A stretch of DNA of 64,000 nt from Escherichia phage 241Ecol014PP. Position 1 is the stretch's first letter; each line of letters opens with the position of its first letter. The stretch lies in sequence record OR062943.1; one strand, 5' to 3'. The notes beneath the pieces are model-generated. The model saw only the letters and a list, made by a program, of their open reading frames with translations. It searched no databases and was not told the origin of the DNA. The position numbers were made by a program, and so were the translations under genes. This document shows, piece by piece, positions 44,126-49,024 of the stretch.

Positions 44126-44200
44126 GCCCTGTTAGCTTAGTGGATAAAGCAGCGGCCTTCTAAGCCGTTGACACTGGTTCGAGTCCAGTACGGGGTGCCA
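44126..44200 (+). tRNA. tRNA-Arg (anticodon TCT), CCA encoded
   Basis: Manual cloverleaf: acceptor GCCCTGT/ACGGGGT (two G-U), D GCTT/AAGC, anticodon loop CTTCTAA. Confidence 0.75.
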
Positions 44201-44330
44201 AGTTCTTTTTAATGTAGCTTACTTTAGCAGAGTAAATCTTCGGCAAGTGGCGGTAACCACTTTACCGATACCTCATAGTTAGTGGTGAGAACACTAGCTA
44301 TTTTAAAAAGAATTTAAATATTAGTATTTA

Positions 44331-44418
44331 GGTGAGTTAATTCCGTAGGGGTAGCGGGGCAGACTGTAAATCTGTTATCATTGCGATTCGGGTGGTTCGA
44401 CTCCATCACTCACCACCA
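44331..44418 (+). tRNA. tRNA-Tyr (anticodon GTA), class II, CCA encoded
   Basis: Acceptor GGTGAGT/ACTCACC; anticodon arm GCAGA-CTGTAAA-TCTGT as in recalled E. coli tRNA-Tyr. Confidence 0.8.
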
Positions 44419-44532
44419 AATTTATATTTTTAAATGCATAAATCATACAGATAATGGCATTGATATTTATCGTCGTTTATACTAGTCACTAACTGCTCGA
44501 AAATCAGTGTCATTATCAGTATTGTTTATAAA

Positions 44533-44623
44533 AGAGGGTAGGGAGCAATGGTGCTCAAGCGGTCTTGAAAACCGTCCCGTTGAGGATGACTCGATGATGG
44601 TTCGATTCCATTATCCTCTGCCA
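44533..44623 (+). tRNA. tRNA-Ser (anticodon TGA), class II, CCA encoded
   Basis: Acceptor AGAGGGT/ATCCTCT; anticodon loop CTTGAAA; long variable arm. Confidence 0.7.
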
Positions 44624-44721
44624 TATTGTTGACCTTGTAATTAAGCGAAAGCCGGAAGCAGAACCGGATTATCAAATGTTACAGTCGTCATCGCCGACTA
44701 GCAACATGGTCAACATACTGA

Positions 44722-44820
44722 GCTAGGTAAGCCCTTTGGCAAGGGCGAGGATTTTTAATCCTGAAAATAGACGAGGTAGTCGTTGAATACATAGGTGGTT
44801 CGATTCCACCGCCTAGCACC
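44722..44820 (+). tRNA. atypical ~97-nt tRNA-like element; anticodon unassigned (possibly TTT)
   Basis: Perfect acceptor GCTAGGT/GCCTAGC and T-arm GGTGG-TTCGATT-CCACC, but 65 nt between acceptor and T-arm. Confidence 0.4.
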
Positions 44821-44825
44821 TTTTT

Positions 44826-44901
44826 GCTGATGTAGCACAATTGGTAGTGCAATTGATTTGTAATCAATAGGTTGCAGGTTCAAGTCCTGCCATCAGCACC
44901 A
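44826..44901 (+). tRNA. tRNA-Thr (anticodon TGT), CCA encoded
   Basis: Full canonical 76-nt cloverleaf; anticodon loop TTTGTAA. Confidence 0.85.
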
Positions 44902-44902
44902 T

Positions 44903-44977
44903 GGCCCTGTAGCTGGAAGGTTCAAGCAAGCGACTCATAATCGCCAGACGGTGGTTCAATTCCACCCAGGGCCACCA
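44903..44977 (+). tRNA. tRNA-Met or tRNA-Ile2 (anticodon CAT), elongator type, CCA encoded
   Basis: Acceptor GGCCCTG/CAGGGCC paired at 1-72; anticodon loop CTCATAA. Confidence 0.8.
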
Positions 44978-44988
44978 AATAATAAATA

Positions 44989-45411
44989 CTCCGCGTAGCT
45001 CAGCTTGGTAGAGATAATCAAAGATGCACAAATGCAGTCGTTGTGGGGAAGAAGATCCATGTAAATTTTATGGTCATAAAAAGACTATATGTGGGAAATG
45101 TCACAATGAGTACACCATGAATCTTGGGAGGCAGAAACGACAGTATGCTGTAGACAAGTTAGGCGGTAAATGTATCAATTGTGGGTTCGATAAATGGATT
45201 GTTTCTTTAGATATTCACCATTTAGACCCTAAAATTAAAGACTCTAAATTTGCTCAAATGAGAGGTTGGAGTCTGCAAAGAATTGATAATGAAATTAAAA
45301 ACTGTGTATTACTTTGTAGAAATTGTCATGCTGCCGTACATGCAGGACTTTTAGAACTACCATAACTTTGGGATCAGGAGGTCGAGTGTTCGAATCACTC
45401 CGTGGAGACCA
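44989..45411 (+). tRNA. class II tRNA gene interrupted in the anticodon loop by an HNH endonuclease ORF (halves 44989-45027 and 45363-45411; anticodon GCT/Ser if loop is AUGC+UAA)
   Basis: 5' half CTCCGCG-TA-GCTCAGCTTGGTAGAG..CAAAG; 3' half CTTTG-GGATCAGGAGGTC-GAGTGTTCGAATCACTC-CGTGGAG-A-CCA; acceptor 7/7, anticodon stem 5/5. Confidence 0.5.
45024..45365 (+). CDS. HNH endonuclease located inside the split tRNA gene
   Basis: CINCG...LDIHHLDP...N...LLCRNCHAAVH; ATG at 45024 directly after anticodon-stem strand, TAA at 45363-45365 directly before its complement. Confidence 0.75.
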   Translation: MHKCSRCGEEDPCKFYGHKKTICGKCHNEYTMNLGRQKRQYAVDKLGGKCINCGFDKWIVSLDIHHLDPKIKDSKFAQMRGWSLQRIDNEIKNCVLLCRNCHAAVHAGLLELP

Positions 45412-46232: not shown

Positions 46233-46516
46233 GAGTTGCTGCACTGTTTATTGTGTGCTTGTTATTGTGTGGGTGTGCAACCAGCGTTGAGAGAGAATAC
46301 AAGATTGACCCTCCAGATGTAGGAAGGTTGATTGTTAAACCCCCGGAAGGTGCCATGAAACCACCTGCTAAAGCTATACCTTTAAAGAAAGGTGCGCCAG
46401 ATGCGGTGAATTCTGGCATTATGAGGGATAATAATCTGTCTTGTAGCAATGATAGAGCTAAATTGATCATTTTGCAAGACTATATTAGAACACTGTTTCC
46501 AAAGGAGAGAGGTTAA
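46229..46516 (+). CDS. o-spanin-like outer-membrane lipoprotein (proline-rich)
   Basis: Signal peptide with LLCGC lipobox-like Cys; KPPEGAMKPPAKAIP. Confidence 0.55.
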   Translation: MRVAALFIVCLLLCGCATSVEREYKIDPPDVGRLIVKPPEGAMKPPAKAIPLKKGAPDAVNSGIMRDNNLSCSNDRAKLIILQDYIRTLFPKERG

Positions 46517-46944
46517 TGTCTAAGATTTACGGACCGTGTTCTGAAAAGCAGAAGATGATCCTAGAAAACGATGCAGATATTTTGGTAATCGGCGGTGCCG
46601 CAGGGTCTGGCAAGTCGTTCCTCTTGCAGTTGATGCCACTTAAAATTATTGATGACCCCCACAGCTCTGTGGTTATGTTCCGAAGAACAACCCCACAGTT
46701 GGAAGGTGAGGGTGGACTATGGCCTAAAGCAGTAGCTATTTATAGTGATCTGCCTGAAAACATTAAGCCAAAGTTCAGAGAGAAGGATCATAAGTTCATT
46801 TTCCCACGATTTGATCCGAGAACTGGCAAGTGGGATAGAAGCAAAAAGGGAGCTGTTGTAAAATACTGCCACATGGAGTATGTACAAGATAAGCTTAACC
46901 ATCAAGGGCTTGAGTACACCATGGTTTGCTTCGATGAGGGTTAA
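46516..46944 (+). CDS. terL: terminase large subunit, exon 1 (ATPase: Walker A and B)
   Basis: Walker A GGAAGSGKS; ends right after Walker B VCFDEG. Confidence 0.8.
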   Translation: MSKIYGPCSEKQKMILENDADILVIGGAAGSGKSFLLQLMPLKIIDDPHSSVVMFRRTTPQLEGEGGLWPKAVAIYSDLPENIKPKFREKDHKFIFPRFDPRTGKWDRSKKGAVVKYCHMEYVQDKLNHQGLEYTMVCFDEG

Positions 46945-47857
46945 TTTGTAGCTCTCGTAAAACCTCCCTAATTGCGGGGAAATCTTTATTATTGACACCA
47001 CCAACCTGTCATGGTAACATGATAGAGGCTTCGAAGAGAGATCGAAGGTATGGTAACAGTGTGTTAATTTAGATAATCCGCAGCGAAGCGTCCGAGAGGA
47101 TGAACGTTCAACGACTAGTCGAAAGACGTAGAATCAAGCGATTCGAAACGGGAGGGTGAATGTGTAATACTAAAAAATGTATGGATTGCCAAAGAGTTCT
47201 ACCTATTGATGATTTCTTTTTATCATCTAAGAGCAAGGATGGATACTCAGGTACATGCAAGGAATGCTATATGTACTACAGGAAGGGTGGATCTCGTAAA
47301 AACAAAAATATGGTTAAGAGAGATGACGCAGCATTGTTTATTCAAGACTTGCTGGAGAAAGGTGAACTTTTTGAATGCAAATCTTGTCATGAAAGTATGC
47401 TAGCTGATAGTTTTTACACAAAACGTGACTATGGTAAAGTATATCTGGTTACGAACAGGTGTAAGATGTGTGAAAAGTTTTATCAGATTGAGAAGAAATT
47501 TCACATAACAAAAGATGAATACTATCGTCTACTCTCAGATCAAGATCATAAGTGTGCCATTTGTAGAATATCCCTTGATGAGTATAGGACGCAAGGGTAC
47601 AGAGATTTCTTTTGTGTTGATCATGACCATAAAACTGGTGCTGTAAGAGGGTTGCTTTGTGATAAATGCAACAGAGCTTTAGGTTTCTTCCAAGAAGATG
47701 AGGAAACTATTCTTAGAGCGGCAGAGTATTTACACATTCATAAGATATAGTCTGGTCTGCATGGAGACATGCAGCTGCCTGAAAATGGCGGGGCAAGACT
47801 AGCGACCTTGCCCGAACATAAACGACACAATTCGAATGGGAGCAGATAGACTATCTG
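46945..47857 (+). mobile_element. putative group I intron in terL carrying an Endo VII-family endonuclease ORF (boundaries approximate)
   Basis: P AATTGCGGGGAAA (46970-46982), Q AATCCGCAGC (47066-47075), R GTTCAACGACTAGTC (47106-47120); internal TTGACA-17-TAACAT (46992-47020). Confidence 0.65.
47160..47750 (+). CDS. Endonuclease VII-family homing endonuclease (intron ORF)
   Basis: CVDHDHKTGAVRGLLCDKCNRALG; N-terminal Cys-rich zinc-finger-like repeats. Confidence 0.7.
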   Translation: MCNTKKCMDCQRVLPIDDFFLSSKSKDGYSGTCKECYMYYRKGGSRKNKNMVKRDDAALFIQDLLEKGELFECKSCHESMLADSFYTKRDYGKVYLVTNRCKMCEKFYQIEKKFHITKDEYYRLLSDQDHKCAICRISLDEYRTQGYRDFFCVDHDHKTGAVRGLLCDKCNRALGFFQEDEETILRAAEYLHIHKI

Positions 47858-48946
47858 ATGTCTCGTCTGCGATCTCAGTCAAAGTATCCATCAAGAATGG
47901 TTATCAGCTGTAACCCCGATTCAGAACACATGCTTGCCAAACTGGTTAGATGGTGGTTGGACGATGAAGGGTATCCAGATCCGGAGAAATGCGGTAAGAA
48001 AAGATATTTTATCCGACGCGACGGTGAATTTATCTGGGGAGACTCTAAAGAAGAGTTGATAGAGAAATACACCACGGTTAACGGACTGGGTGTGGAGATC
48101 AAGCCGAGACCGTTGTCATTCTCGTTTATAGGCGCAACAATATTCGATAATCCTGTCTGCTTAAGAGACAACCCAGAATACCTTGCTTTCCTTGAAGGTC
48201 TGCCGGAACTGGAAAAAGCTCAGCTTCTTCATGGTAACTGGTTTGCAAAGCCTGAGGGTGCAAACTATTTTCAAAGATCTTTCCTTCGTGATGCCGATAG
48301 AGTACCCCTTGGATCAGTATCTTGTAGGGCATGGGATAAGGCAGGAACCGAGAGAACTTCCGGTAATAAATTTCCTGACTTTACCGCCAGTGTTAAGGTA
48401 AGTAAAGATAGCGACGGCTTTTATTACCTGTCCGGTGATTATTGTCCTGAGAACGTGGATGACGGGAGGTATTCCACAGGTCTGGAAGGTAAGTTCTGTA
48501 AAAAGGCTGGTGAACGAGATGTGATCATCAGGAAACAGGCGCAGTTTGATGGTGACGATTGTATAATCGTATTCTCTGTGGACCCAGGTCAGGCAGGTAA
48601 GAGTGAGTTCTTAACCTCCTCCAGATCCTTACTCGCCGAAGGGTTTAGGGTTGAAGAAGACCCAATGCCTTCCAACAAATCTAAACTGACAAGATTCTCA
48701 CCTTTTGCCAATCTTGCCCAACAAGGAATGGTGAGGATTGTAAAATCCAGTTTCCATCCTGATACTCTGGAAGCATTTCTGACTGAACTTGAAAAATTCA
48801 ACGGGGAAAGATCAACATTTAACAGAAAAGACGACTGGGCCGACTGTGTAGCTTCTGCGATTAATTTCCTGGAGAAAGAGGAGGTAGCACTTCCTTGTGT
48901 GATTCCATCAATCTCATCACCTTCTATGTTCAAGCGTTTTATCTAA
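47858..48946 (+). CDS. terL: terminase large subunit, exon 2 (nuclease domain)
   Basis: VISCNP coupling-motif-like block and C-terminal DDWADCVA; 5' boundary approximate. Confidence 0.8.
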   Translation: MSRLRSQSKYPSRMVISCNPDSEHMLAKLVRWWLDDEGYPDPEKCGKKRYFIRRDGEFIWGDSKEELIEKYTTVNGLGVEIKPRPLSFSFIGATIFDNPVCLRDNPEYLAFLEGLPELEKAQLLHGNWFAKPEGANYFQRSFLRDADRVPLGSVSCRAWDKAGTERTSGNKFPDFTASVKVSKDSDGFYYLSGDYCPENVDDGRYSTGLEGKFCKKAGERDVIIRKQAQFDGDDCIIVFSVDPGQAGKSEFLTSSRSLLAEGFRVEEDPMPSNKSKLTRFSPFANLAQQGMVRIVKSSFHPDTLEAFLTELEKFNGERSTFNRKDDWADCVASAINFLEKEEVALPCVIPSISSPSMFKRFI

Positions 48947-48995
48947 GTGTTGCCAATCTTAATTAGATGTGGTAGAATAGAGTAATCGGAGATAC

Positions 48996-49024
48996 TAGCC
49001 CTCTAACACGAGGGCTATTTTGTT
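48996..49024 (+). terminator. rho-independent terminator (TAGCCCTC/GAGGGCTA stem, T run)
   Basis: Direct reading. Confidence 0.65.

Follow-up and report, generated by a model that had tools for sequence, protein, structure and literature searches.

A group I intron with an Endo VII-family endonuclease gene in the large terminase gene of an rV5-like Vequintavirus

Introduction

Group I introns in the large terminase gene (terL) have been described in several phages. The rV5 paper contains a section headed 'Introns in terminase' and cites a terL group I intron in Lactobacillus delbrueckii phage LL-H (Mikkonen & Alatossava 1995, cited in Kropinski et al. 2013, PMC3606486), and in the Certrevirus CB7, a Pectobacterium phage, splicing of an HNH-carrying terL intron was shown by RT-PCR (PMC7344957). 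The terL gene of rV5 is joined from three segments in its RefSeq record (NC_011041), and BASEL GenBank records likewise join terL and name the intron ORF a putative homing endonuclease. The ortholog of this ORF in Escherichia phage 2 JES-2013 is listed as an intron-encoded homing endonuclease with the Endo VII motif (DHHRN), and the 'endonuclease clade' of that family explicitly contains the JES-2013 protein (Fang et al. 2018, PMC6083498). Several GenBank records, on the other hand, list two separate 'terminase' CDSs and a 'recombination endonuclease VII' at this locus.

Here we analyse a 64,000-nt stretch of phage DNA (the window), which belongs to an rV5-like Vequintavirus with ~98.7% identity to deposited genomes. 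The terL intron in the window and its endonuclease are real, but they are already described and annotated for rV5 and relatives. We find that positions 46942-47824 very probably constitute a mobile, self-splicing IA-type group I intron, located one codon past the Walker B Asp-Glu of terL.

Results

Exon joining restores the terL reading frame

The locus consists of three segments:

46516..46941, + strand: terL exon 1, 142 codons from ATG 46516 (ORF list), matching Pfam Terminase_6N profile positions 2-104
46942..47824, + strand: group I intron, 883 nt (Rfam RF00028), with boundaries set by the intron-less allele
47825..48946, + strand: terL exon 2, 373 codons plus stop, encoding the remainder of the ATPase domain followed by the RNase H-like nuclease domain

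Exon 1 encodes the Walker A motif GGAAGSGKS and the Walker B motif with the catalytic Glu (MVCFDE-G), and it ends with ...MVCFDEG at 46941. The first intron codon is an in-frame UAA (TAA 46942-46944) and the intron closes with G47824, after which exon 2 opens at 47825 with ACA CAA TTC (TQF), 33 nt before ATG 47858. The GC content is 39% in the intron versus 44% in the exons.

Translation across the predicted junction (46941 joined to 47825) yields 515 aa. Terminase_6N matches this protein once, with 72.3 bits over residues 25-294 and across the junction, whereas the unjoined exon products give two weak half-matches of 25.7 and 28.1 bits; Terminase_6C matches residues 394-489 (27.9 bits). Judged by these profiles, the predicted spliced product is a large terminase of the Terminase_6 type, with an N-terminal Walker A/B ATPase and a C-terminal RNase H-like nuclease. 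We assign Walker B from the Pfam alignment together with the hhhhDE pattern; a PDB sequence search with spliced TerL, aimed at anchoring Walker B, found no meaningful match to a solved structure.

The exact junction is given by a naturally intron-less sister phage. In EmilHeitz, terL is one continuous CDS of 1548 nt, which equals the summed length of the two exons; its initial 426 nt correspond in length to exon 1. This CDS aligns collinearly with the product predicted from splicing at 100% amino acid identity, in a single tblastn piece over the junction. At the DNA level, 32 substitutions in 1548 nt separate the two, none of which changes the predicted junction peptide ...VCFDEGTQFEWEQ...; the predicted ligated-exon RNA junction reads GATGAGGGT-ACACAATTC. 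Only the boundaries 46942/47824 satisfy the U·G and terminal-G rules and also reproduce the intron-less allele. The first-pass annotation had placed the split after Walker B, and the restored frame of the EmilHeitz gene bears this out. Its gap of ~910 bp is a true interruption but measures 883 nt, the larger figure having run to the first downstream ATG (47858). Similarly, the second exon does hold the nuclease domain assigned to it, but it also encodes the second half of the ATPase, Terminase_6N extending to residue 294. Because the intron begins with an in-frame stop codon, terminase production depends on splicing, as had been proposed. That phages with the intron are viable isolates implies that it is spliced.

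A complete group I core with an ORF in P8

The Rfam Intron_gpI model matches the window copy with 48.6 bits (E 4.4e-11) at all 253 model positions, and the ORF-less JohannBauhin allele with 84.3 bits (E 6.9e-21). The window copy lies 1.4 bits below the curated RF00028 gathering threshold of 50 bits because a 563-nt ORF insertion sits in P8. Consequently, scanning the entire window at default Rfam settings returned four tRNAs only, and the intron surfaces only in E-value mode on a sub-region. By score, we count the window copy as a group I intron through the ORF-less JohannBauhin copy of the same intron. The elements of the core are as follows:

46934..46958, + strand: P1 helix, AUGAGGGUUA / UAGCUCUCGU, 10/10 pairs (covariance-model alignment; fold -10.5 kcal/mol)
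46963..46968, + strand: P3 5' strand CCUCCC, 6/6 pairs with 47150-47155
46970-46982, + strand: P element AATTGCGGGGAAA, containing the P4 5' strand
46972..46978, + strand: P4 5' strand, pairing with 47077-47083; covariance-model consensus AAUUGCGGgAAA
46982..47074, + strand: P5 and its three-way extension, with P5a (46991-46998/47061-47068), P5b hairpin (47006-47025) and P5c hairpin (47029-47047), from folding
47075-47084, + strand: Q element AATCCGCAGC, containing the P4 3' strand
47077..47083, + strand: P4 3' strand (fold and pairing check)
47089..47102, + strand: P6 hairpin CGUCC GAGA GGAUG (pairing check)
47106-47120, + strand: R element GTTCAACGACTAGTC, with the P7 5' strand GACUA (47113-47117), 5/5 pairs with 47748-47752; covariance-model consensus GUUCAaAGACUA
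47118..47144, + strand: hairpins P7.1 (GUC GAAA GAC, 47118-47127) and P7.2 (GAAUC AAGC GAUUC, 47131-47144), from fold and pairing
47150..47155, + strand: P3 3' strand GGGAGG, also the endonuclease Shine-Dalgarno, 4 nt before AUG
47158..47167, + strand: P8 5' strand GAAUGUGUAA, 10/10 pairs with 47730-47739, holding AUG 47160-47162
47730..47739, + strand: P8 3' strand UUACACAUUC, also coding for the endonuclease C-terminus
47742-47753, + strand: S element AAGATATAGTCT, comprising J8/7 and the P7 3' strand UAGUC (47748-47752); covariance-model consensus AAGAUAUAGUC
47757..47813, + strand: hairpins P9 (47757-47774), P9.1 (47776-47790) and P9.2 (47791-47813), from fold and pairing

The covariance model recognises a complete P1-P9 core, as expected from the first-pass annotation, whose P, Q and R elements are all located in the window; the S element had not been listed there. 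The Intron_gpI match is far beyond chance (E 4.4e-11). P1, P3, P4, P5-P5c, P6, P7, P7.1, P7.2, P8, P9, P9.1 and P9.2 all show full complementarity. The 10-bp P1 carries the wobble pair U46941·G46951 at the 5' splice site, with the internal guide at 46947-46956. A possible P10, between UGU 46947-46949 and ACA of exon 2, amounts to a weak helix of 3 bp that includes a single bulged base.

Comparison of six alleles reveals that pairing is kept in eight of nine helix substitutions. These include a two-sided compensatory change in P5b (C47010-G47021 to U-A in rV5 and Gotham), and pairing is likewise preserved by G47008·U47023 to G-C in DrSchubert and by two P5a changes in JohannBauhin. In P6, G47090·U of the window corresponds to A-U in each of the five other alleles of the comparison, and in P8 the variant A47732 to G of HdK5 remains paired as U·G. 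In ORF-less alleles, P8 is replaced wholesale by an unrelated short hairpin at the same place.

P7.1 and P7.2 hairpins between P7 and P3 are a hallmark of subgroup IA, in which IA2 introns also have a P2. In the covariance-model alignment P2 is deleted, and ~4 nt separate P1 from P3. By these predicted helices the window intron is of IA type (P7.1/P7.2 present, P2 absent) without finer subgroup, and it departs from the textbook td-like IA2 form. Its predicted structure has the group I features throughout: the U·G pair in P1, the terminal G, the P3-P8 and P4-P6 core, P7 and the P, Q, R and S elements.

The intron-borne endonuclease

P8 accommodates a gene:

47160..47750, + strand: putative homing endonuclease gene within the P8 loop, 196 aa, containing ...CVDHDHKTGAVRGLLCDKCN... 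(Pfam PF02945)

Pfam Endonuclease_7 (PF02945) matches the 196-aa product with 76.1 bits (E 2e-21; cut-off 23.6), PHROG 'endonuclease VII' families match it with a best value of 3.5e-33, and its PDB matches are Hpy99I (1.6e-5, the best) and T4 Endo VII (5.8e-4). Two CxxC...CxxC zinc-ribbon modules at the N-terminus precede a C-terminal Endo VII / DHHRN ββα-Me nuclease domain. The DHHRN residues (D154, H155, H157, R163 and N171) and the zinc ligands (C132, C135, C167 and C170) are all present, as taken from an alignment with T4 Endo VII in which a 5-residue gap was placed by eye. The Endo VII-family identity first read from the motif is upheld by the Pfam match and by this complete set of catalytic and zinc-binding residues. 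The gene overlaps the ribozyme at both ends, with its ribosome-binding site in P3, its start codon in P8 and its stop UAG (47748-47750) in P7.

Allele states among relatives

Among phages ~98% identical, 29 records carry the intron with the ORF and ~23 carry an ORF-less intron, while 51 further records have an intron-less terL. The ORF is 196 aa long in the window, DrSchubert and HdK5; in Gotham the endonuclease is frameshifted, leaving 64 aa from the original start. Presence and absence of the intron occur even within one species, Gotham having it and Murica lacking it, which argues for recent movement.

Exon differences between the allele types cluster at the insertion site. At three synonymous sites beside the insertion, all 51 intron-less alleles read GGC|ACG CAG versus GGT|ACA CAA in the six intron-bearing alleles examined, and no intron-less terL flanked by exon sequence of the intron-bearing type turned up in 50,697 phage records. 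Together with the coexistence of intron-bearing, ORF-less and empty alleles, this clustering lends indirect support to a homing role of the endonuclease.

A second position in terL is vacant in the window:

48141..48142, + strand: empty site of the second terL intron (979 nt, HNH gene; present in rV5 and HdK5), from sequence comparison with rV5 and HdK5

In HdK5, this second intron gives weak Intron_gpI matches and contains an HNH_3 ORF.

A promoter-like site within P5a/P5b

Upstream of the endonuclease gene lies a further candidate element:

46992..47020, + strand: σ70-like promoter-like site TTGACA-17-TAACAT, inside P5a/P5b, 10/12 matches with extended -10 TG

The intron had been credited with its own promoter-like sequence. 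The sequence is indeed present, and a PhagePromoter prediction in the Gotham record is the same site, but it is only weakly unusual, and the promoter stays putative. Our estimate, only slightly on the favourable side of even, is that the site is a chance match in P5a/P5b and that the endonuclease is translated from the terL pre-mRNA or the excised intron. When the 218 nt ahead of the ORF are shuffled, about 3% of the resulting sequences hold an equal or better site (chance ~0.03), the region shows no clear excess of sites with at least 9/12 matches (10 seen versus 6.6 ± 2.3 expected), and RNA pairing constrains both hexamers. Moreover, the hexamers persist in the ORF-less intron of rV5, where nothing needs expressing. 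Against a chance origin, T4 intron ORFs have their own promoters, the site is the best σ70-like match within 3.4 kb and has the extended -10 TG, and a transcript from ~47027 would be without the 5' strands of P3 and P4, freeing the ribosome-binding site. The rV5 authors also report σ70-type promoters throughout the genome along with a late motif, TggTAaAAtA, which resembles TGGTAACATG here (PMC3606486). In ORF-less JohannBauhin the -35 reads TTAATA and the site is lost; we rejected this loss as a sign that the promoter serves the endonuclease, since ORF-less rV5 retains TTGACA-17-TAACAT.

Discussion

Proposed mechanism and alternatives

We propose that the 5' exon end AUGAGGGU of the terL pre-mRNA would pair with the internal guide to form P1, whereupon an external guanosine, bound in P7, would attack after U46941 in the U·G pair. 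The freed exon 1 would then attack after the terminal G47824, joining ...GAU GAG GGU to ACA CAA UUC... and allowing synthesis of the 515-aa TerL; unspliced RNA would give the 142-aa fragment only, since UAA is the first intron codon. The endonuclease presumably cuts intron-less terL in mixed infections, and repair would copy in the intron along with flanking exon markers. Folding of the ribozyme (P3, P8) would hide the Shine-Dalgarno and AUG of the endonuclease, which may be translated from RNA that is unable to form the core. In this scheme splicing in vivo, the specificity of the endonuclease and homing are our reading of the sequence.

It is hardly credible, in our assessment, that the insertion is dead or non-splicing, for example a free-standing endonuclease cassette, and that terminase assembles from two polypeptides translated independently. 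Certain phage genes interrupted by homing endonuclease genes do work in this way, the exon 1 reading ends in its own stop codon, ATG 47858 opens a 362-aa ORF over most of exon 2, and the GenBank records with two 'terminase' CDSs follow this layout. However, no Shine-Dalgarno lies at a usable distance ahead of ATG 47858, and a start there would lose eleven conserved codons (TQFEWEQIDYL), though these fall within the Terminase_6N match and are found in intron-less terL. The ribozyme core is, moreover, complete and covarying, and viable phages such as rV5 and JohannBauhin precisely retain an ORF-less intron that has no endonuclease to maintain it. That the intron splices while its endonuclease is no longer an active homing enzyme, being instead a decaying passenger or serving another role (maturase, phage competition), is less far-fetched but still unlikely. 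The ORF-less and frameshifted (Gotham) alleles of close relatives would fit a cycle of invasion, fixation and decay, and the three synonymous differences in every intron-less allele found could mean that the empty sites are resistant. The ORF of the window is nevertheless full length, a length kept in DrSchubert and HdK5, with the five DHHRN residues and four zinc cysteines intact and a strong GGAGG ribosome-binding site, and the Gotham/Murica polymorphism points to recent movement.

Several of these observations may be connected within the preferred reading of a mobile, self-splicing intron. Tentatively, the endonuclease gene and its own P8 stem may form a separate mobile cassette that invaded an ORF-less terL intron; its expression would be mutually exclusive with ribozyme folding, through the P3/P8/P7 overlaps and possibly a P5a/P5b promoter giving a P3/P4-deficient transcript, and the three synonymous differences would mark either resistant empty sites or obligatory co-conversion. 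We regard this combination as possible, with the odds against it. If true, the combination would amount to a variation on T4 td/I-TevI regulation and not to a new principle.

The practical value of these results lies in annotation, given that automatic pipelines split terL and that the default Rfam threshold misses the ORF-containing intron. The window adds one more selfish intron lodged at the catalytic motif of an essential phage gene. With intron-less, ORF-less, ORF-containing and frameshifted alleles coexisting in one genus, Vequintavirus terL offers a convenient natural setting in which to study how an Endo VII-motif endonuclease goes through its homing cycle, although it opens no new question.

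Comparison with known systems

The window copy differs in no way of kind from Vequintavirus terL intron 1. The insertion site, after GAT GAG GGT, is the same in rV5, DrSchubert, JohannBauhin and JES2013 (NC_011041, MZ501060, MZ501083 and KC690136), and the ribozyme cores differ by 2-5 substitutions per ~300 nt. The 196-aa Endo VII-type ORF is common to the window, DrSchubert, JES2013 and HdK5, and JES-2013 is 98.3% identical to the window across the terL/intron region. In rV5, by contrast, intron 1 is ORF-less (319 nt) with a different P8 hairpin, and a second, HNH-carrying intron is present that the window lacks.

The T4 td intron is likewise of group I and interrupts an essential phage gene; it begins with UAA after ...GGGU and has P7.1 and P7.2. 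Its 3' end (P9-P9.2 and the terminal G) is ~82% identical to the last ~80 nt of the window intron. We rejected a td-like identity of the entire core, as only these 3' ~80 nt align to T4 td: the P4-P6 half cannot be aligned with td (group IA2) by blastn, and P2 is absent from the window intron. The P4-P6 half is instead similar to introns found in Vibrio phages and in phages of Gram-positive bacteria. The td intron has its ORF, for the GIY-YIG enzyme I-TevI, in the P6 loop, whereas in the window intron an ORF for an Endo VII-motif enzyme occupies P8. In td/I-TevI, RNA structure sequesters the start region of the ORF, as is predicted for the window intron.

The endonuclease shares with F-CphI and the DHHRN family the C-terminal D-H-H-R-N motif with four zinc cysteines (PMC6083498), and its best PDB match, Hpy99I, is a member of the same 'endonuclease clade'. 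F-CphI is free-standing, beside the psbA intron of cyanophage S-PM2, whereas the window enzyme is intron-encoded and known from sequence. A homologous Certrevirus terL intron in phiTE was considered and rejected, the blastn match lying in the ribonucleotide reductase gene. Finally, LL-H and CB7, different phages likened to the window by host gene alone, also carry group I introns in the large-terminase gene; the endonuclease of the CB7 terL intron is of the HNH type, in contrast to the Endo VII-motif enzyme of the window.

Splice boundaries of the terminase gene

Our analysis of the terminase large subunit gene (terL) confirms that it is interrupted and supports the reading of the interruption as a group I intron with an Endo VII-type endonuclease, with small coordinate corrections. 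In group I introns, the U of a U·G pair precedes the 5′ splice site and the last intron base is a G; these rules and the reading frame together place the intron as follows.

46516-46941, terL exon 1, ending ...MVCFDEG, with TAA directly after
46942-47824, group I intron, 883 nt

The split after VCFDEG is where the first-pass annotation had put it. Joining 46941 to 47825 gives a 515-aa protein (...MVCFDEG/TQFEWEQIDYLMSRL...), and natural controls confirm the predicted boundaries at the sequence level. The uninterrupted terL of the sister phage EmilHeitz is 1548 nt long, the exact sum of the exon 1 and exon 2 lengths; spliced terL differs from it at 32 of 1548 nucleotide positions with zero indels, and the 110 residues centred on the predicted junction match it with 100% identity in one tblastn piece. 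Similarly, spliced TerL yields a single Terminase_6N match spanning the junction (residues 25-294, 72.3 bits), while the unjoined halves reach just 25.7 and 28.1 bits. The interruption is therefore 883 nt rather than the ~910 bp first estimated. The ATG presumed to open exon 2 lies 33 nt past its actual start, and the exon, described earlier as the nuclease-domain exon, also codes for the second half of the ATPase domain.

Ribozyme core and helices

The conserved core elements P, Q and R were found where they had been reported, and an S element, AAGATATAGTCT, not listed in the first-pass annotation, lies at 47742-47753. A group I covariance-model scan in E-value mode aligned Intron_gpI (RF00028) end to end over 46932-47774 (48.6 bits, E 4.4e-11), with the whole endonuclease ORF inserted into the P8 loop; at Rfam default thresholds, the intron is unreported in the terL region. 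The anatomy of the window intron includes no P2.

46970-46982, element P
47075-47084, element Q
47106-47120, element R
46934-46943 / 46949-46958, P1, 10 bp, U46941·G46951 at the splice site
46963-46968 / 47150-47155, P3
46972-46978 / 47077-47083, P4
46982-47074, P5 with three-way extension (P5a, P5b, P5c)
47089-47102, P6
47113-47117 / 47748-47752, P7
47118-47144, P7.1 and P7.2, a feature of subgroup IA
47158-47167 / 47730-47739, P8
47757-47813, P9, P9.1 and P9.2
47824, terminal G

Exon 2 ACA could also pair with UGU 46947-46949 as a 3-bp P10.

Comparison of six alleles (window, DrSchubert, HdK5, Gotham, JohannBauhin and rV5) supports the proposed helices. C47010-G47021 becomes U-A in rV5 and Gotham, and G47008·U47023 becomes G-C in DrSchubert; two P5a changes in JohannBauhin keep pairing, G47090·U of the window is A-U in the other five alleles, and C47813-to-U and A47732-to-G give G·U in P9.2 and U·G in P8, respectively. 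The sole pair-breaking change is at 47051 in Gotham. In the ORF-less alleles, a wholly different self-complementary hairpin (AUAAGCG-GUUGUUGU-CGCUUAU) replaces the ORF-bearing P8, and one such allele scores 84.3 bits against RF00028.

Endonuclease and promoter-like site

47160-47750, endonuclease ORF, 196 aa (Pfam Endonuclease_7, 76.1 bits, E 2e-21)
46992-47020, TTGACA-17-TAACAT, best σ70-like match in 3.4 kb

The 196-aa ORF bears the Endo VII motif originally ascribed to it. Its ββα-Me domain comprises residues 110-192, with the catalytic residues D154, H155, H157, R163 and N171 and the zinc ligands C132, C135, C167 and C170 all present. The best solved relative is the restriction enzyme Hpy99I (E 1.6e-5, residues 59-192); T4 Endo VII matches with E 5.8e-4. 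The N-terminal 110 residues contain two CxxC...CxxC modules matching zinc-ribbon PHROGs; this region plausibly recognises the DNA.

Gene and ribozyme are interleaved: the GGAGG ribosome-binding site of the gene doubles as the P3 3′ strand, its AUG lies within the P8 5′ strand, its last codons form the P8 3′ strand and J8/7, and its UAG falls within the P7 3′ strand. Because of this interleaving, a correctly folded ribozyme would hide the translation start, and ribosomes translating the ORF would unfold the ribozyme core.

The promoter-like sequence attributed to the intron is present, and the PhagePromoter prediction in the Gotham record is the same site; from sequence, it makes a weak candidate for an intron-internal promoter. 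When the 218 nt before the ORF are shuffled, a site of equal or better quality arises in ~3% of cases; both hexamers sit in the P5a/P5b helices, and the site is kept in the ORF-less intron of rV5 and mutated in that of JohannBauhin. σ70-type promoters across the rV5 genome and a late motif, TggTAaAAtA, have been described (PMC3606486); TGGTAACATG in the window resembles the latter.

Distribution of alleles

The full intron with ORF occurs in 29 phage records, the 319-nt ORF-less intron in ~23 further records and an uninterrupted junction in 51 more. Insertion-site flanks read GGC/ACG CAG in 51/51 intron-less phage records and two IMG/VR contigs, and GGT/ACA CAA in 6/6 intron-bearing alleles examined (window 46939-46941 and 47825-47830); no empty site with intron-type flanks was found among the 50,697 phage records. 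The U·G pair requires the U at -1; the remaining two silent changes may reflect co-conversion of donor markers or differences in the target site.

A second terL intron (979 nt) is present in rV5 and HdK5 (HdK5 locus L003, 2340-3321) within ...SFIGAT/IFDNP..., at the exon 2 position equivalent to 48141/48142, which is empty in the window. It carries a 228-231-aa HNH_3/HTH ORF and gives weak Intron_gpI matches (24-35 bits). In Gotham (MT682716), the A-run that immediately follows the endonuclease start codon has lost one base; the resulting frameshift shortens the product of the original ATG to 64 aa and exemplifies the decay of a homing endonuclease gene in this genus. The allele picture is the familiar cycle of homing-element invasion, spread and decay.

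Genome setting

Over the 2.6 kb around the intron, many rV5-like coliphages (genus Vequintavirus) share 98-98.7% identity with the window, among them DrSchubert, JES2013, O157 typing phages 4 and 14 and several records that carry the name 'Campylobacter phage'. We note that ~18 GenBank MG0656xx records so named (host Campylobacter jejuni) show 98-99% identity to E. coli rV5-like phages across the terL region; the labels appear wrong, or coliphage may have contaminated the samples. Locally, the genes run in the order tRNA cluster, i-spanin, o-spanin, terL, portal.

44126-44974, + strand, four tRNA genes (Rfam 39-79.5 bits), preceding the spanin-terL block, an arrangement shared with rV5
45024-45365, + strand, HNH endonuclease ORF, 113 aa (Pfam HNH 23.8 bits), in segment 45014-45366
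48950-49017, between terL and portal, containing σ70-like TTGCCA-17-TAGAAT (10/12 matches), overlapping the region just before the terminator-like hairpin
48996-49017, intrinsic-terminator-like hairpin, likewise annotated as terminator in the rV5, HdK5 and Gotham records

The HNH segment, directly 3′ of the tRNA cluster, is an exact 353-nt insertion relative to rV5, where its flanks are contiguous.

Relation to known systems

The terL intron with an Endo VII-type ORF is an already known feature. Kropinski et al. 2013 include a section 'Introns in terminase' on rV5 terL and acknowledge D. Shub for having defined the intron (PMC3606486), and in the rV5 RefSeq record terL is a join of three segments. 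For the BASEL phages, intron boundaries were annotated by Maffei et al. 2021; in the DrSchubert record terL is joined in the same way, and a CDS at the matching position is labelled 'putative homing endonuclease'. The DHHRN (Endo VII-motif) family of homing endonucleases was defined by Fang et al. 2018, who list the JES-2013 protein as intron-encoded (PMC6083498); Escherichia phage 2 JES-2013 is rV5-like, with 98.3% identity to the window across the terL region. Literature searches found no splicing or cleavage experiment on the window's terL intron; in the related Certrevirus CB7, terL intron splicing was shown by RT-PCR (PMC7344957). The locus serves as an annotation reminder and as a tidy natural allele series in which to study this uncharacterised homing endonuclease of the Endo VII-motif type.

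Over its last ~80 nt, the intron shares ~82% identity with the T4 td intron 3′ end, and its P6-P7.1 part is similar to introns from Bacillus, Staphylococcus and Vibrio phages. The antagonism between ribozyme folding and translation suggested here would follow the same logic as that known for T4 td/I-TevI.
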